From the NCBI GenBank assembly GCA_965227515.1, contig CBDDFZ010000001.1, forward strand, positions 2,592,001 through 2,656,000: a stretch of DNA of 64,000 bases, written 5' to 3'. The notes under the pieces are model-generated. The model made no database searches. It had not been told where the DNA came from and worked only from the letters and a program-made list of their open reading frames with translations. The position numbers and the translations under genes are program-made. The DNA comes from Alphaproteobacteria bacterium. GTDB taxonomy: Bacteria > Pseudomonadota > Alphaproteobacteria > CALKHQ01. Below are positions 40,547 to 46,508 of this stretch, in pieces (position 1 is the first letter of the stretch; every line of letters begins with the position of its first letter).

Positions 40547-40567
40547 GTTCGTTTAATGTTCCCTTAA
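40547..40567. promoter_or_regulatory. Overlapping alphaproteobacterial SOS (LexA) box and CtrA box
   Basis: GTTC-gtttaat-GTTC (40547-40561) and TTAA-tgttccc-TTAA (40553-40567). Confidence 0.7.
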
Positions 40568-40629
40568 TAGTCCAATATTGGTGAATGGGAATCACAACCA
40601 TAAAGTGTAGTCAGCCGAGGAGAACGCCG

Positions 40630-41121
40630 ATGCGGGCAGCCAGAAAGAGCGACAGTGTCACACTCACGGCGGCACGGCACCAGCACGACACCATCGATGT
40701 GGTGCCGACCGAGGCGGCCGGCGTAACGGCGCATCGTGTGCGCACGCCGTTCGCCCTCGACCGCTATCACGCGCGCGGCGAACTGGCGCCGGGCGAACCG
40801 GTGGAAAACAACCGGCGTTATGACGCCGGGGAGCGATTGCGGGCCGACTGGACCAGGGCGGGGCTGGAGCCCGCAGTCGTGGCGCGCTATCGGGACCTGG
40901 TCTCCGGCGGCGTTTCCGGGGGTGGGGGGCTTCGACACGACGTCCACGCACACCGGATGGACGCGCACCGGGCGTGGAAAAAGGCGATCCAGAAGGTGGG
41001 ACCGATCGCCAGCAACGAGGTGATCGAGGCGTGCTGCCTGGGCAATGCCGTGCGCGGCAAGGTGCGGCTGGAGATTCTGCGCCGCGGCCTGGCGGTTCTG
41101 GCTGACCACTACGGCCTCTAG
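40630..41121 (+). CDS. DUF6456-like protein (GafA C-terminal/GafZ-like transcription activator or antiterminator)
   Basis: GAGGAG SD; motifs AGERLRADWTRAGL, GGG linker, VGP, xCC, C-terminal LADHYGL, as remembered for DUF6456 proteins. Confidence 0.7.
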   Translation: MRAARKSDSVTLTAARHQHDTIDVVPTEAAGVTAHRVRTPFALDRYHARGELAPGEPVENNRRYDAGERLRADWTRAGLEPAVVARYRDLVSGGVSGGGGLRHDVHAHRMDAHRAWKKAIQKVGPIASNEVIEACCLGNAVRGKVRLEILRRGLAVLADHYGL

Positions 41122-41166
41122 GGCACACGCAAAACGAGTGCATCGGCCTGGAAGTTCAAAATTATG

Positions 41167-41196
41167 TTGATCTTTGTGGGTGTTTTTGTTATGTTC
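41167..41196 (+). promoter_or_regulatory. Sigma70-like promoter with a degenerate SOS box over the -10
   Basis: TTGATC-N17-TATGTT; GTTT-ttgttat-GTTC at 41182-41196. Confidence 0.5.
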
Positions 41197-41347
41197 TGTT
41201 TCAGGAGATGCATGCAACGGGGTTGATCGGCAGCGAGACCGATTGACCGGGTTGCGGGCCAGGTCGGGCGGCCAATGAGCTCGTGTCTCCCACCCATGCT
41301 CAAAGATTCCATCCAATCCACCGAGCGATTGCGAGGCTTGCACAGTC

Positions 41348-41689
41348 ATGACCATGCACAAATCAGGCGCCGTGATCGACGGCGGGACGACGGCTCCAAT
41401 GAAGCGGATCAACGGCGGCGGTGCGCCGGCCTGCGCGGGCCTGGTGTTCGTGGCCGAGGACGGCACCGTCAGCCGTGCGCAGCTTGCCCAGATGCTGCTG
41501 CAGGACCGCGAGCTTGCGTACGAGGAGGGCACACCGGCTGCGGCCGTCGCCGCCACCGTGGCGCTGTATCGGATATGCGGCCCGGACACGGCCGACCCGG
41601 ATGCCGTGGTGTCCGAGCTGGAACGCCTCAGCGACGACGACCTGGCACAACGGGTGCGCGACCTCGAAGAACAACTGAAGGACGTGTGA
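41348..41689 (+). CDS. Putative terminase small subunit
   Basis: 113-aa helical protein whose stop overlaps (GTGA) the large terminase start; C-terminal coiled coil LSDDDLAQRVRDLEEQL; assignment mainly positional. Confidence 0.45.
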   Translation: MTMHKSGAVIDGGTTAPMKRINGGGAPACAGLVFVAEDGTVSRAQLAQMLLQDRELAYEEGTPAAAVAATVALYRICGPDTADPDAVVSELERLSDDDLAQRVRDLEEQLKDV

Positions 41690-43421: not shown

Positions 43422-43637
43422 ATGACCATGGGTGGATTGTTGTCACCGCCACAGAAGGCCTCCCCACCGCCGCTGCCGGCGCCGGTGCCCCGCGACGATG
43501 CCGAGGTGCAGCGCGTCGCCGCCGAGGAACGCCGCCGCCGCCGTGCCCAGTCCGGCCGCAGCAGCACCATCAAGACCTCCGGCCAGGGCGTCACCGAACA
43601 GGCACCGGTCGGCCACAAGCGCCTGCTTGGCGAATAG
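43422..43637 (+). CDS. Small podovirus-type pre-portal virion protein
   Basis: AAGGAG SD; MGGLLS...Pro-rich...GRSSTIKTSGQG...KRLLGE pattern typical of the gene before T7/BPP-1-like portals. Confidence 0.6.
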   Translation: MTMGGLLSPPQKASPPPLPAPVPRDDAEVQRVAAEERRRRRAQSGRSSTIKTSGQGVTEQAPVGHKRLLGE

Positions 43638-43677
43638 GTGGCCGTTGCCGCTATCGCCATGCAACGAGGATGACGAG

Positions 43678-45342
43678 ATGAGAGACACCGCACGGGAATT
43701 GCGGGCACGGTTCGAGGCGTTGGCTGGCCGGCGCGGGCCGTGGGAGGCGCATTGGCAGGAGATCGCCGAGCGCGTGCTGCCGCGCCAGGCCGGCTTCACC
43801 GGCCGCACCACGCCGGGCGCCAAGCGCAACGAGAAGATCTTCGACAGCACGGCCCCGCTGGCGCTGGAGCGTTTCGCGGCGGCGATGGAGTCGATGCTGA
43901 CGCCGCGAGGCCAGCGCTGGCATCATTTGCGGGTCGCGGACGAGGAGCTTGGCCGGCGCGACGACGTGCGCGCCTGGCTGGAGGCGGTGGAGCGCAGGCT
44001 GTTCGCCAGCCGCTATGCGCCGCGCGCCAACTACGCCTCGCAGCAGCACGAGATCTACATGTCGCTGGGGGCGTTCGGCACCGGGGCCATGTTCCTGGGC
44101 GACGACCCGGTGGCGGGGCCGACCTACCGCGCCATCCACCTGGGCGAGCTTTACGTCGACGAGGACGCGCACGGCCGCATCGACACCGTGTTCCGCAAAT
44201 TCGAGCTGACCGCCCGCCAGGCGCGCCAGTTCTTCGGCGCCGACCGGCTGCCGGACACGATCCTGCGCGCGGGCGAGGATGCGGGCGACCGCAAGTTCGC
44301 CTTCCTGCACGCCGTGTTCCCGCGCACCGCGCGCAATCCGGCGAAGCTGGACAGCCGCAACATGTGCTTCGCCTCGTGGTACCTGGCGCTCGACGGCAAC
44401 GAGCTGATCGGCGAGGGCGGGTACCGCACCTTCCCCTACATGATCAGCCGCTACGTCACCGCGCCGGGCGAGGTTTATGGCCGCTCGCCGGCGATGGCGG
44501 TGCTGCCCGACATCAAGATGCTGAACGAGGCGGCGCGCACCATCATCCGTGCCGCCCACCGGCAGGTCGACCCGCCTATTCTGGTCCACGACGACGGCGT
44601 GCTCGGGCCGCTGAACCTGCAGCCAAACGCGGTCAACGTCGGTGGGCTGTCACCGACCGGCGAGCCATTGGCAAAGCCTTTTAACAGCGGAGGGAAGATC
44701 GACATCGGTCAGGAACTGCTGGAGGCGTGGCGGGGCTCGATCAAGGACGCATTCCTGGTCAGCCTGTTCCAGGTGCTGACCGACCATCCGAACATGACCG
44801 CCACCGAGGCGTTGGTGCGGGTGCAGGAGAAGGGCGCGTTGATCGCGCCCGCCGTCGGCCGCCAGCACTCCGAGGCGCTGGGGCCGATGATCGCGCGCGA
44901 GATCGACATCCTGACCCATCGCCGTGCTCTGCCGCCGGCGCCGCCGGTGTTGGCCGAGGCGCGGGCCGACCTCGAAATCCGCTACGACAGCCCGATGGCC
45001 CGCGCCCAGCGTGCTCAGGACGTCAGCGGCATCGCGCGGCTGGTGGAAACAGTCGCGCCGCTGTTGCGCATGCATCCTTCGGTGGTCGACCTGTTCGATG
45101 CCGACGCCATCGTGCGGCTGGCCGGCGAGGCCTATGGCGTGCCGCATGGCGCGCTGCGCGCCGAGGCCGACGTCGAGGCGCATCGCGCGCGGGCCGCCGA
45201 GGAAGGCACAGAGCCTGCACCGGGCGACGATGTGCTGGGCCAGCTTGCCGGGACTCTCGGCGCTCTTGCCCCGACCATGGCGGACGATCCCACGTCGGTG
45301 CCCCTTGAGACCGGGGTTGTCGCGCCGGGGGCGACGCCATGA
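43678..45342 (+). CDS. Portal (head-to-tail connector), T7 gp8/BPP-1-like
   Basis: FDSTAPLALERFAAAM, GAFGTG, GEVYGRSPAM, MTATE, 554 aa. Confidence 0.88.
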   Translation: MRDTARELRARFEALAGRRGPWEAHWQEIAERVLPRQAGFTGRTTPGAKRNEKIFDSTAPLALERFAAAMESMLTPRGQRWHHLRVADEELGRRDDVRAWLEAVERRLFASRYAPRANYASQQHEIYMSLGAFGTGAMFLGDDPVAGPTYRAIHLGELYVDEDAHGRIDTVFRKFELTARQARQFFGADRLPDTILRAGEDAGDRKFAFLHAVFPRTARNPAKLDSRNMCFASWYLALDGNELIGEGGYRTFPYMISRYVTAPGEVYGRSPAMAVLPDIKMLNEAARTIIRAAHRQVDPPILVHDDGVLGPLNLQPNAVNVGGLSPTGEPLAKPFNSGGKIDIGQELLEAWRGSIKDAFLVSLFQVLTDHPNMTATEALVRVQEKGALIAPAVGRQHSEALGPMIAREIDILTHRRALPPAPPVLAEARADLEIRYDSPMARAQRAQDVSGIARLVETVAPLLRMHPSVVDLFDADAIVRLAGEAYGVPHGALRAEADVEAHRARAAEEGTEPAPGDDVLGQLAGTLGALAPTMADDPTSVPLETGVVAPGATP

Positions 45343-45632
45343 TGTGGCTGACCCGCCGTGGCCTGCGCAAGCGCCAGGAGGTCTACCGCCGCGTGTTCGA
45401 GACCCCGGCCGGCCAGGAAGTGCTGTCCGACCTCGCCACCTTCTGCCGCGCCTTCACCAGCACATTCGTGCGCGGCGACCCCTATTCCACCGCGCTCGGC
45501 GAGGGCCGGCGCGAAGTGTTCAACCGCATCGCCGGGCTGATCGCCCTGGATGAGGACGGCTACGCCCGGCTGATGGCGCAGCACCTGCTGGAGCCGGATC
45601 AGGCCGGCCACCGGCTCGCCGAAAAGGAGTGA
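45339..45632 (+). CDS. Bbp19-like phage protein
   Basis: YRRVFETPAGQEVLSDL...DPYSTALGEGRREVFNRI; ATGA overlap with portal. Confidence 0.75.
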   Translation: MMWLTRRGLRKRQEVYRRVFETPAGQEVLSDLATFCRAFTSTFVRGDPYSTALGEGRREVFNRIAGLIALDEDGYARLMAQHLLEPDQAGHRLAEKE

Positions 45633-45635
45633 GAC

Positions 45636-46508
45636 ATGCAAACCGAAACCATGACCCAAACGACCGCCGCCTCGCCCGGACCAAACGCGGCGAGCGCGTT
45701 GCCGGCCTGGGCCGCCAGCCTGCCGGACGATATCCGCGCCCTGGTCGCCAAGAAGAAGTGGCCGGATATCGCGGCTGCCCTGCGGTCATACCAGCATGTC
45801 GAGCGCCGGCTCGGCGAACTGAAGCGCAAGGCGCTGGTGGAGGTGCCGGCGGAGGATGCCGATCCGGCGGCGTGGTCGGCGCTGTTCGACAAGCTCGGCC
45901 GGCCGGCCCGGCCCGATGACTACGATCTTGCCGGCATGGAGGCCGGTGAGGCGGAAGAAACGCCTGCGATGACCGCGTTTCGCCAACTCGCCCACGACAT
46001 TGGACTCAGCGCGACCCAGGTGAGCGCGCTCAGCGGTTGGTGGCAGGGCTTGGTCGAGGACTGCCGCGCCTTGCACGAGGACGATGCGGATGCGGATGCT
46101 GCGGCCGCGGCCGTATCCGTCGAGGAGGTGCTGCGCCAGCACTGGGGCGCCGACTATGAGCGCCGCCGCGCCATGGCCGAGCGCGCCTACATGCAGTTCG
46201 CCGACCCGCGCGTCGGCATCGGCGACCGTGGGCTCGCCGCGCTGGAGGAACTGAGCGACGCCGCCGCGGTGATGGACATGCTCGCCGACATCGGCCAGGC
46301 GATGAGCGAGGACGTGCGGGTTGGCGGCGAGGGTACTGTCGACTTCGGCCTGTCTCAGGACGACGCGCGCAGCCAGCTTAGTCAGCTCAAGCGCGACAAG
46401 GCGTTCATGGACGCCTATCTCGACAAGCGCCACCAGGACCACGACCGCGCCGTACAGCGTGCGCGGGCGCTCAACCGCATCGCCGCCGGCGTCGACCCGC
46501 ACGGCTGA
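45636..46508 (+). CDS. Capsid assembly scaffolding protein (podovirus-type)
   Basis: [52 protein letters not shown]. Confidence 0.7.

Follow-up and report, generated by a model that had tools for sequence, protein, structure and literature searches.

A podovirus-derived element split between two chromosomal loci and headed by a GafA/GafZ-family regulator: a candidate gene-transfer-agent-like system in an alphaproteobacterium

Introduction

Known gene transfer agents (GTAs) come from a few independent domestications: the RcGTA group, BaGTA, VSH-1, Dd1 and VTA. Delivery of DNA by RcGTA needs host uptake functions. To our knowledge, regulators of the GafA/GafZ type are known only with the siphovirus-derived RcGTA group. 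Here, we describe a cluster of phage-type genes at positions 40553-46508 of a 64,000-nucleotide (nt) stretch of an alphaproteobacterial genome, called the window below (GenBank assembly GCA_965227515.1, contig CBDDFZ010000001.1, positions 2,592,001 to 2,656,000). In this cluster, a gene for a GafA/GafZ-family regulator stands before a packaging and head-assembly module of the T7/BPP-1 podoviral type.

The literature on described GTAs provides the background for comparison. GTA genes are frequently dispersed (PMC9638019), GafA homologues carry the annotation DUF6456 (PMC9638019, PMC9765227), and GafZ is an antiterminator (PMC11150451). The DNA fragments carried by GTAs are quoted as roughly 5-15 kbp (PMC9632790). 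BaGTA and the RcGTA group are held to be independent domestications (bioRxiv 10.1101/2024.11.20.624540); the text of that preprint does not contain the words "podovir", "portal" or "terminase".

An initial annotation of the window had proposed a domesticated podovirus-type element with a GafA/GafZ-family regulator, and this core idea survives the tests that the annotation itself set out. We read the cluster as one locus, that for regulation, packaging and head assembly, of a multi-locus GTA-like element that derives from a BPP-1/T7-like podovirus, has been domesticated and is not autonomous. This reading rests on sequence comparison, and we give it a probability of about 0.55. At that same restrained strength, a GTA-like role is the most economical function for a set of genes that combines a GafA-family regulator, a trimmed small terminase subunit (TerS), a headful-type terminase, lysis genes and dispersal. 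The element looks, by its genes, to have been inherited and kept by the bacterium, and not to be a live or dying virus.

One element, two loci

The cluster is a chain of + strand open reading frames (ORFs), closely spaced or overlapping, as seen in the ORF list and in a reading of the sequence (Table 1). Pfam and PHROG scans, together with that reading, recovered every gene that had been named in it, as well as the tight coupling and the common strand. One boundary had to be corrected: the portal ORF had been listed from 43432, a start that is too early.

Podophages, BcepC6B and Ralstonia phage RpY1 among them, have portals that share 41-47% identity with the portal of the cluster. The scaffold-like protein aligns with the proteins found at the scaffold position in MW202898 and BcepC6B. 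The Bbp19-like protein shares 70% identity with its counterpart in G001, one of three genomes of a sister genus (G001, G002 and G003) that are used throughout for comparison. The 71-amino-acid (aa) ORF has no match in the family scans, NCBIfam included; its position is that of the small pre-portal ORF of BcepC6B-like phages (BcepC6B gp04). An NCBIfam scan of ten small or unknown proteins of the element gave only chance-level matches, far under the cut-offs.

Phages place the capsid gene immediately after the scaffold. Here, no capsid or tail gene lies 3' of the scaffold in the window. The two replicons of the genome (C1 and C2) were therefore searched by tblastn with the structural proteins of BcepC6B and MW202898, the nearest phages by portal. 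Portal, Bbp19-like gene and scaffold each occur once in the genome, all in the window. The capsid, tail and lysis genes lie in a second locus on C1, 314 kb away. All particle genes are thus single-copy and, divided between two distant loci, they are not packageable as one unit, a mark of GTAs. The four parts that define a T7/BPP-1-like module, a PF12236 portal, a capsid, tail tube A and tail tube B, are all present.

By gene content, then, the two loci are complementary and non-redundant, and together they amount to a full podoviral particle-plus-lysis kit of ~20 kb. The cluster had at first been taken for the whole system; it is the packaging and head-assembly half of one, with capsid, tail and lysis genes elsewhere. 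In the same way, the statement that lysis genes are lacking holds for the window and fails for the element, which has an amidase and associated genes at its second locus.

What neither locus shows is equally relevant. Scans of the ORFs in and beside the two loci revealed no replication, integration or excision genes of the element itself. At the window locus, in agreement with the initial annotation, no integrase was found among the scanned ORFs, no exact direct (att-type) repeats bracket the cluster, and there is no tRNA gene in positions 30000-56000.

The composition of the genes is host-like, as had been proposed. The G+C content at third codon positions (GC3) is 0.82-0.92 in the window cluster and 0.78-0.93 over the genes of the element as a whole, and its median is 0.88 in host-like long ORFs, a set defined by a heuristic filter (at least 300 aa, GC3 >0.75, first 1.5 Mb of C1). 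The window itself has a G+C content of ~66%. The repetitive extragenic palindromic (REP) element noted inside the cluster does belong to a genome-wide family, with 304 BLAST rows on both replicons and top matches of 90-94% identity over ~80 nt.

Table 1. Features of the window cluster (window coordinates), of the second locus and of two satellite-like elements (replicon coordinates, C1).
Feature	Position	Strand	Remarks
TTAA-N7-TTAA box, TTAATGTTCCCTTAA	40553..40567	+	18 nt 5' of first ATG of regulator ORF
DUF6456 (GafA/GafZ family) protein, 163 aa	40630..41121	+	PF20057, E = 6.7e-12; ATG preceded by GAGGAG
TerS-like protein, 113 aa, without N-terminal helix-turn-helix (HTH)	41348..41689	+	alignment to G001 TerS-like protein
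Large terminase, N piece (TerL-N)	41692..42504	+	Terminase_6N positions 1-152 of 215, E = 3.5e-18
Large terminase, C piece (TerL-C)	42506..43249	+	Terminase_6C positions 1-154 of 155, E = 6e-19
Host REP-like palindromic repeat (hairpin)	43271..43353		between TerL-C and 71-aa ORF
Small conserved protein, 71 aa	43422..43637	+	66-aa homologue at same place in G001
T7/BPP-1-type portal (head-to-tail connector)	43678..45342	+	PF12236, E = 5e-129; phrog_332, E = 8.8e-144
Bbp19-like small protein	45339..45632	+	PF25181, E = 1.1e-18; start overlaps portal stop (ATGA)
Scaffold-like protein, final gene of locus	45636..46508	+	phrog_3742, E = 3.2e-37; weak protease phrog_458 match
Second locus overall	C1:2952061-2966278		capsid, decoration-position, tail, internal-virion, fibre, LamG and amidase genes
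Host LacI-type gene	before capsid		named by eye; PHROG label "DNA binding protein"
Capsid	C1:2952061-2952948		phrog_3437; single copy
160-aa protein (p160), decoration position	after capsid
Three low-GC3 ORFs	C1:2953625-2956062 (L066 3625-6062)		GC3 0.39-0.65; between decoration-position gene and tail A; no family match
Tail tube A	from C1:2956137		phrog_394
Tail tube B	from C1:2956766		phrog_376
gp13-like protein	after tail B		phrog_4177
Internal-virion protein, 207 aa	after gp13-like protein		phrog_418
Three ORFs, 166-230 aa	between internal-virion protein and fibre
Fibre with T7-type N-terminus, then LamG-domain protein	second locus
151-aa protein	after LamG protein		weak spanin/holin-like matches
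Amidase with peptidoglycan-binding domain, then lipoprotein	second locus
Insertion sequence (IS) transposase	end of second locus, beyond lipoprotein
Satellite-like element 1, ~12 kb	C1:1750477-1762932 (L050 4477-16932)		tRNA-integrated; 56-bp direct repeat at ends
Satellite-like element 2, ~12 kb	C1:~3329700-3341650 (L051)		tRNA-integrated

A conserved terminase in two pieces

The large terminase subunit (TerL) is encoded by two ORFs. By sequence reading, TerL-N carries a Walker A motif (GNQLGKT), a Walker B motif (LVWYDEE) and a TFTP motif. TerL-C comprises the last part of the ATPase domain and a complete RNaseH-like nuclease; it is in a different frame, and its ATG lies 1 nt past the TerL-N stop. 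The two domains that a P22-type terminase holds in one polypeptide are thus distributed over two ORFs, with their motifs intact. TerL-N is 77% identical to its counterpart in G001.

A break of this kind might, of course, be a pseudogene or an assembly error. Both were rejected, since TerL is cut at one and the same junction in all 13 cellular loci compared, and in three different ways. These loci are the window cluster, two further copies in the same genome, G001, G003, three clusters from Kiloniellaceae, a second copy in one of these, and four contigs of metagenome-assembled genomes (MAGs). The junction has ...GMSEVVR.FL... on its N-terminal side and ..RHVT.MTI.D.. on its C-terminal side, and it parts the ATPase core from the next strand. 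The interruption is a frameshift, an in-frame stop (G042, G043) or a pair of overlapping ATGA genes (the satellite-like elements described below); as a further form, the pieces stand 3-16 kb apart (G003, L023, L025, G044). In the phage relatives, TerL is a single coding sequence (6/6). The split recorded by the initial annotation is therefore real, and it is a conserved two-gene state and not damage. That the junction is identical argues, in turn, that the split arose once.

The contig from the source sequencing run is identical across the junction. Contigs of another organism (X2) end within ~25 nt of it, so that X2 does not bridge it. A scan of IMG/VR with TerL-C returned 6 loci, among which fused and split-looking forms are both present. 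Two smaller observations concern the same region. The N-terminus of TerL-N (41700-41745) holds a short Asn-Gly-Ala repeat (NGANGANGANGA) that stems from a 9-nt tandem repeat, and the contig of a relative shows gaps somewhere in 41401-42528.

The nearest phage TerLs, at 47-61% identity, include those of Xylella phage Xfas53 and of Rhizobium RHph/RHEph phages. BLASTP of the two pieces against the TerLs of the portal-matched phages (BcepC6B, MW202898) gave no match, and hence terminase and portal have different nearest relatives among phages.

Could the two pieces work together? A structural model of the TerL-N and TerL-C complex scored 0.75, with the best of 3 controls at 0.01; in a benchmark, 58 of 80 solved complexes and 2 of 110 mismatched pairs reached the same mark. 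The runs, made with alignments that we built, share at least 62% of contacts, with partner pLDDT of at least 77, and the first 16 residues of TerL-C contact residues 68-94 and 252-257 of TerL-N. Structures of intact TerL have been solved, so the model may pass by memory; it shows likeness, not binding.

The small subunit is altered as well. The 113-aa TerS-like ORF has no Pfam or NCBIfam match. Its residues 23-107 align to residues 143-231 of a 260-aa TerS-like protein of G001, whose N-terminus resembles the HTH end of BcepC6B TerS, and it aligns weakly to the Terminase_2 TerS of the satellite-like elements; these comparisons used a four-sequence database, and their E-values flatter. No HTH remnant was found in any frame 5' of the ORF. 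The HTH of TerS is kept in G001 and G002. TerS of this genome thus appears reduced to its core and C-terminal part, and a loss of pac-site recognition would be the natural reading.

The regulator and its control signals

The regulator is the first gene of the packaging operon. It scores 46.1 bits against PF20057 (cut-off 26.3), over profile positions 18-106 of 136, and among the control genomes the same profile also matches in Caulobacter vibrioides. The gene is single-copy in this genome and is found in 4/4 genomes of the family, which are also the four genomes of its order in the collection. The homologues, 24 in all, are 145-182 aa long. GTA_TIM (PF13547), a hallmark of RcGTA, is absent (0/1) from this genome, with a control match in Caulobacter; the DUF6456 gene therefore does not serve a cluster of the RcGTA type. 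The DUF6456 protein is a candidate activator or antiterminator of the element.

In all three sister-genus genomes, a cI/LexA-like gene with HTH and Peptidase_S24 domains is divergent from the DUF6456 gene. No homologue of this repressor was found in the genome studied here. Thus, the claim that the element lacks a repressor stands for this genome and does not extend to the sister genus, where one lies beside the regulator.

In this genome, the regulator ORF is preceded by a TTAA-N7-TTAA box, which we take to be the consensus for CtrA. There are 2 such sites in the window against 0 expected, and 22 in the 5.5-Mb genome, 21 of these intergenic by an ORF heuristic. The ten genes scanned beside such sites include a CheY-like gene and a hybrid histidine kinase; at one site, a gene for an OmpR-type response regulator is divergent from one for a FliI-like ATPase. 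The set of sites looks like a CtrA regulon. CtrA would then possibly control the regulator, on the strength of a single motif. No such motif was found 5' of the regulator gene in the sister genus. The other site in the window (30794-30808) lies 84 nt 5' of an ORF for a 2411-aa protein (30892-38127).

A scan for sigma-70-like promoters found none in window positions 40200-47800. A candidate noticed by eye, TTGATC-17-TATGTT at 41167-41195, matches at 8/12, falls under the scan threshold and is not claimed as a promoter. The capsid operon at the second locus does have a sigma-70-like promoter (10/12, with an extended -10). Its leader of ~330 nt folds far better than shuffled sequences (z = -5.87), and an intrinsic-terminator-like hairpin with a T-run lies ~110 nt 5' of the capsid start; a second such hairpin precedes tail A. 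Promoter, leader and terminators form a layout that an antiterminator would control, and we infer that the DUF6456 protein may be the one. The leaders of the two loci share no 11-mers in this genome.

Some features of the leaders are recorded here in their own right. A 16-mer that forms a small hairpin (GCGGGAAAGACCGCCG) is identical in the capsid-operon leaders of both genera (L066 1805-1830; G001). In G001 (L017, reverse strand), the leader between the DUF6456 gene and TerS has a near-consensus site, TTGACA-17-TAGAGT, and, 3' of it, two long tandem arrays, one with an 8-nt unit (GGGCTCTT) and one with a CCTGACCTGGCCTGG-like unit.

The gene sets in the sister genus and beyond

G001 carries the same two gene sets. 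Its packaging locus runs DUF6456, TerS, TerL-N, TerL-C, small protein, portal, Bbp19-like gene and scaffold (43-82% aa identity), and it too ends at the scaffold. Some 18 kb then separate scaffold and capsid, occupied by a solute-binding protein, two ABC permeases, a GMC-type oxidoreductase and other genes, whose best matches in the genome studied here lie on C2 and elsewhere on C1 (73-84% identity). The second set follows in the order seen here: capsid (80%), p160, tail A, tail B, p145, internal-virion protein, p166, p218, a membrane protein and the fibre N-terminus. Both genera thus have the scaffold and capsid genes parted at the same place.

All 17 element genes compared between this genome and G001 are open in both (47-80% aa identity). 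By the Nei-Gojobori method (NG86), their dS is 0.34-1.22 and omega, the ratio dN/dS, is 0.31-0.76; for 7 host orthologues, dS is 0.31-0.80 and omega 0.17-0.56, an eighth host row (46% identity, omega 1.14) having been set aside as a probable paralogue. Between G001 and G003, 7 element genes have dS of 0.23-0.49 and omega of 0.18-0.34. The initial annotation had asked for selection in relatives, and omega is indeed below 1 in 17/17 genes, at a dS like that of host genes. Host-like dS with every gene open fits co-descent under purifying, somewhat relaxed, selection.

The other two sister-genus genomes hold parts of the set. In G003, capsid, p160, tail A and tail B run into a contig end, TerL-N and TerL-C are 3.2 kb apart with two host-like genes between them, and the DUF6456 gene and repressor sit among host genes, unlinked from TerL. 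In G002, DUF6456 and TerS lie at a contig end.

Related portals (54-58% identity) are present in Denitrobaculum tricleocarpae, in two further Denitrobaculum MAGs, in a Pelagibius sp. and in uncultured Kiloniellaceae. The layout in this family, taken from three genomes (two Denitrobaculum, one Pelagibius), is TerL-N and TerL-C, a gap of 10-14 kb, portal, Bbp19-like gene and scaffold, a gap of 15-20 kb, and a capsid piece (capsid, tail A, tail B, p145, internal protein, fibre and, further on, lipoprotein). The three copies have the same order of pieces at one syntenic chromosomal site, with a shared downstream flank (81-96% identity; GlmU- and GlmS-like genes, named by eye, and further genes). 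Their element genes are 65-97% identical to one another, and their capsid is only 34-37% identical to the one described here. One Denitrobaculum genome has a second TerL pair.

The gaps appear to be hot spots for cargo. Those of L018, L069 and their neighbours contain 953-976-aa ORFs, each followed by several small ORFs that seem by eye to be toxin/immunity-like; duplicated 497-aa and 639-aa genes of low GC3 and ExbB/ExbD-like genes (by eye) were also seen in Kiloniellaceae gaps.

In one MAG contig (L024), all structural genes stand together; before them come an S24 repressor, a protein with DUF6362 and HTH domains, and TerS. The distance from the repressor to a host sugar kinase is 1.6 kb, and there is no replication module between repressor and terminase. 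The DUF6362 + HTH_23 protein (L024 5879-6397) stands between the S24 repressor and TerS, where the family studied here has DUF6456; it may be an alternative late-gene activator.

The nearest cellular relatives are not complete prophages; complete active prophages as closest matches would have counted against domestication. Taken together, the layouts look like stages of one process, from contiguous, through interleaved at one site and two loci, to two distant loci.

Satellite-like elements in the same genome

Two further elements of ~12 kb in this genome (Table 1) sit at tRNA-Phe and tRNA-Lys, respectively. Each has an integrase, an AAA_25 protein, a Terminase_2 TerS and overlapping TerL-N and TerL-C genes, whose products are 60% identical to the pieces in the window. 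Each also has a 961-aa protein like BcepC6B gp17, found nowhere else in the genome. Neither has a portal, capsid or tail gene. With GC3 at 0.76-0.83, the two have in common a 3.4-kb core of 95.7% identity. They resemble satellites, for which the resident element could provide the particles.

Surroundings of the two loci

Ordinary host genes flank the window cluster, as had been noted: on the upstream side an aldo/keto reductase and an FMN reductase, on the downstream side an RTX-repeat protein. The gene for the last (HemolysinCabind x7; 46526-47665) is on the same strand, 17 nt past the scaffold stop, and may be co-transcribed with the cluster; a peptidase-like ORF, identified by eye, follows it. 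In three other organisms (X2, X7, X8), contigs match the cluster as well as its flanks at about 93-97%, which indicates that the locus is stable within the genus.

At the second locus, the three low-GC3 ORFs look like a recent insertion. G003 has no insert before tail A, and G001 has ~1.8 kb of unrelated DNA there. On the minus strand of the second replicon (C2:541383-543369), a small phage protein has a 96-aa homologue, with ORFs of 506 and 133 aa after it. In Kiloniellaceae and L024, the homologue of this 96-aa protein sits between TerL-C and the portal, and the stretch on C2 may be a third locus of the element.

Interpretation and alternatives

How would such an element work? A host signal, possibly CtrA acting through the TTAA-N7-TTAA box, would switch on the DUF6456 gene; in the sister genus, the divergent cI/LexA-like S24 repressor beside that gene would take the place of the box. 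The DUF6456 protein, like GafA/GafZ, would activate or antiterminate the structural operons. TerL-N and TerL-C would join by strand complementation to give a headful terminase of the P22 type. TerS, without its HTH, would no longer pick a pac site, and host DNA would enter T7-like heads, which the amidase would release. The element would be unable to transfer itself, because its genes are spread over >300 kb. If the large internal proteins are truly missing, either DNA delivery would depend on uptake functions of the host or the particles would be defective.

Several results weigh against reading the two loci as a GTA-like element in this way. The first concerns the particle. The large internal (ejection) proteins gp15 and gp16 of BcepC6B, and their equivalents in MW202898, have no match in the genome, although divergence could account for this, and the internal-protein region amounts to ~600 aa here against 1800-2300 aa in phage relatives. 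Such a gap could make for a defective particle as easily as for a GTA-style one. Nor is there a sign of the reduced head of RcGTA; as the capsid shares 48% identity with that of a phage of 38.7 kb, the heads are probably of full size.

The second concerns inheritance. The element's omega between genera exceeds that of most host genes, and NG86 is rough at this divergence and codon bias. Within the sister genus, the portal is found in 1/3 assemblies (0/2 in G002 and G003) and the capsid in 2/3 (1/2 in the same pair), and TerL-C is found in G003 and not in G002; as G002 and G003 are drafts of 340-350 contigs, 96-97% complete, loss and assembly gaps are indistinguishable in them. Presence in relatives, which the initial annotation had named as a test, thus comes out well for G001, with the same gene sets, and poorly for the other two. 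The companion test, conserved synteny, gives a similarly divided answer: there is a syntenic site in Kiloniellaceae and a shared break with G001, and there is no synteny in the flanks of the loci between the two genera. The case for vertical descent therefore rests on shared architecture and dS, and not on position. In the TerL tree, the backbone is unresolved and the phage rows are long-branched, so that a single clade of split forms is neither backed nor rejected.

The third concerns the regulator. An AlphaFold2 model of the DUF6456 protein (24-row alignment, mean pLDDT 78.2, pTM 0.66) gave 82 Foldseek matches in the PDB at E <= 10 and 0/82 at E <= 0.001. DUF6456 was found in none of four element-bearing genomes of other lineages, two of them Kiloniellaceae, which confines the GafZ-type wiring to one family. 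No + strand terminator-like sites were found inside the window cluster. The patchy state of the sister genus is one reason why our confidence in a GTA-like element stays at the level given above.

The alternative that survives best, unlikely as we judge it, is that the genes are domesticated and under selection for something other than gene transfer: as a standing helper for other elements, for which the 12-kb elements are candidates, or for killing particles or altruistic lysis. Here, one would cite the two tRNA-integrated elements that bring their own TerS and split TerL and have no portal, capsid or tail, in a genome whose resident element keeps all particle genes intact. A satellite alone cannot, however, explain why the host should retain the helper's genes; the element is retained in the sister genus and in Kiloniellaceae as well; and a TerS without HTH, combined with a GafA-family regulator, fits random packaging better.

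Somewhat further down the scale, we think it improbable that the genes were left by one or more defective prophages, whose parts have been scattered through rearrangement and are decaying without host function. Several points would suit decay: capsid and tail genes 314 kb from the portal, a low-GC3 insertion and an IS transposase within the second locus or next to it, element parts not found in G002 and G003, flanks that are not syntenic between genera, and large internal virion proteins not found. Yet 17/17 genes are open in two genera with host-like dS and omega below 1, and the scaffold/capsid break, the split TerL and the gene order are common to genera and families. GC3 is host-like, against the lower values (0.76-0.83) of the recently acquired elements in the same genome, and the Kiloniellaceae copies, 65-97% identical, occupy a single syntenic site. 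ORFs that stay open across genera and families, host-like dS and GC3, and a shared derived architecture are difficult to reconcile with pure decay.

That the genes form an intact temperate podophage, or part of one, replicating and spreading alone, is very improbable: the cI-like repressor (HTH + Peptidase_S24) that the sister-genus and L024 relatives carry in divergent orientation to the late genes, the contiguous structural genes of L024 and the lysis genes would suit it, but the two halves lie 314 kb apart in this genome, with no integrase, tRNA or att repeats at the window locus and no replication genes beside either locus, 18 kb of host genes lie inside the G001 copy, and L024 has a host sugar kinase 1.6 kb from its repressor and no replication module before its terminase. 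For this genome, an autonomous phage is excluded by the layout.

The favoured reading, that of a domesticated GTA-like element, can be extended, and here we are tentative. There might exist an old, independently domesticated family of podovirus-derived GTAs across several marine or soil lineages of alphaproteobacteria (the order studied here, Kiloniellaceae, MAG lineages), with an obligately two-piece TerL and structural genes interleaved with host and cargo genes. In this possible family, the genome described here would have gone furthest: it would have lost the cI-like repressor and the DNA-recognition domain of TerS, gained a CtrA box and a GafZ-type antiterminator, and been parasitised by 12-kb satellites that bring a pac-specific TerS, a split TerL and an ejection-type protein.

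Significance

If the GTA-like reading is true, a regulatory module of the GafA/GafZ type can couple to unrelated particle machinery, and a new lineage becomes available in which to study the change from phage to host organelle. Natural intermediates would be at hand: contiguous with a repressor; three pieces at one site; loci 18 kb apart; and loci separated by 314 kb, the repressor gone and TerS shortened. In its conserved two-gene form, TerL is in addition a ready system for the study of ATPase and nuclease cooperation in packaging motors.

If particles are made, they could move roughly 40 kb of host DNA, a figure that comes solely from likeness to 38-43-kb phages. This would lie far above the GTA fragments quoted in PMC9632790.

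Titles and abstracts in the literature searched, supplements being outside its scope, gave no podovirus-derived GTA with a GafA/GafZ-type regulator, and no description of a split large terminase was found in that literature, again with supplements outside its scope. The element is apparently undescribed.

Comparison with known systems

Five kinds of described system invite comparison. The BPP-1/BcepC6B-like and related temperate podophages (Burkholderia phage BcepC6B, Ralstonia phage RpY1, uncultured phage MW202898) have the same gene order and portals of 41-47% identity, and the Bbp19-like protein, scaffold, capsid (48% to MW202898), tail tubes A and B, gp13-like protein and fibre N-terminus all match. 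Those phages, however, hold everything in 38-43 kb. Their genomes also encode an integrase, a repressor, a DNA polymerase, a primase and three large internal proteins, and their TerL is in one piece and belongs to another lineage. In the genome studied here, the chromosome carries the genes in separate places, and replication and integration genes were not found. The TerL resembles instead that of the P22 type (Xfas53, RHph_Y25, RHph_N2, RHEph18), with 51-60% identity in TerL-N, ~61% in TerL-C and the same Pfam architecture of Terminase_6N and Terminase_6C. It differs in being cut, here and in 12 other cellular loci, where the phages have a single CDS (coding sequence) in 6/6.

With satellites, the likeness is confined to the 12-kb elements, which we assume to be akin to PICI-like phage satellites that have packaging genes of their own: they are tRNA-integrated, with an integrase, a replication-type ATPase, TerS and TerL, and no capsid or tail. 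The window cluster, in contrast, is without integrase and att sites, its partner locus supplies capsid and tail, and its own part would be that of the putative helper.

To RcGTA of Rhodobacter capsulatus and CcGTA of Caulobacter crescentus, the likeness is one of gene organization: phage-derived genes that are chromosomal, lie at several loci and give no self-transfer. The dedicated regulator is of the DUF6456 family, as GafA homologues are annotated (PMC9638019, PMC9765227), and it can be unlinked from the structural genes, as in G003. The leaders with promoter and terminator fit antitermination by GafZ, and the repressor beside the regulator in the sister genus recalls RogA beside gafYZ (PMC11150451). 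The machinery itself is different. The structural genes are of the T7/BPP-1 podoviral type and not of the HK97-like siphoviral type found in RcGTA, GTA_TIM is absent, the regulator is a single short protein, and TerL is two genes. Judged by its genes, which do not include the defining structural genes of that family, the element is not a member of the RcGTA family. BaGTA of Bartonella is alike in plan: it is described as a domesticated element of chimeric make-up, with several loci that transcriptional antitermination ties together (bioRxiv 10.1101/2024.11.20.624540).

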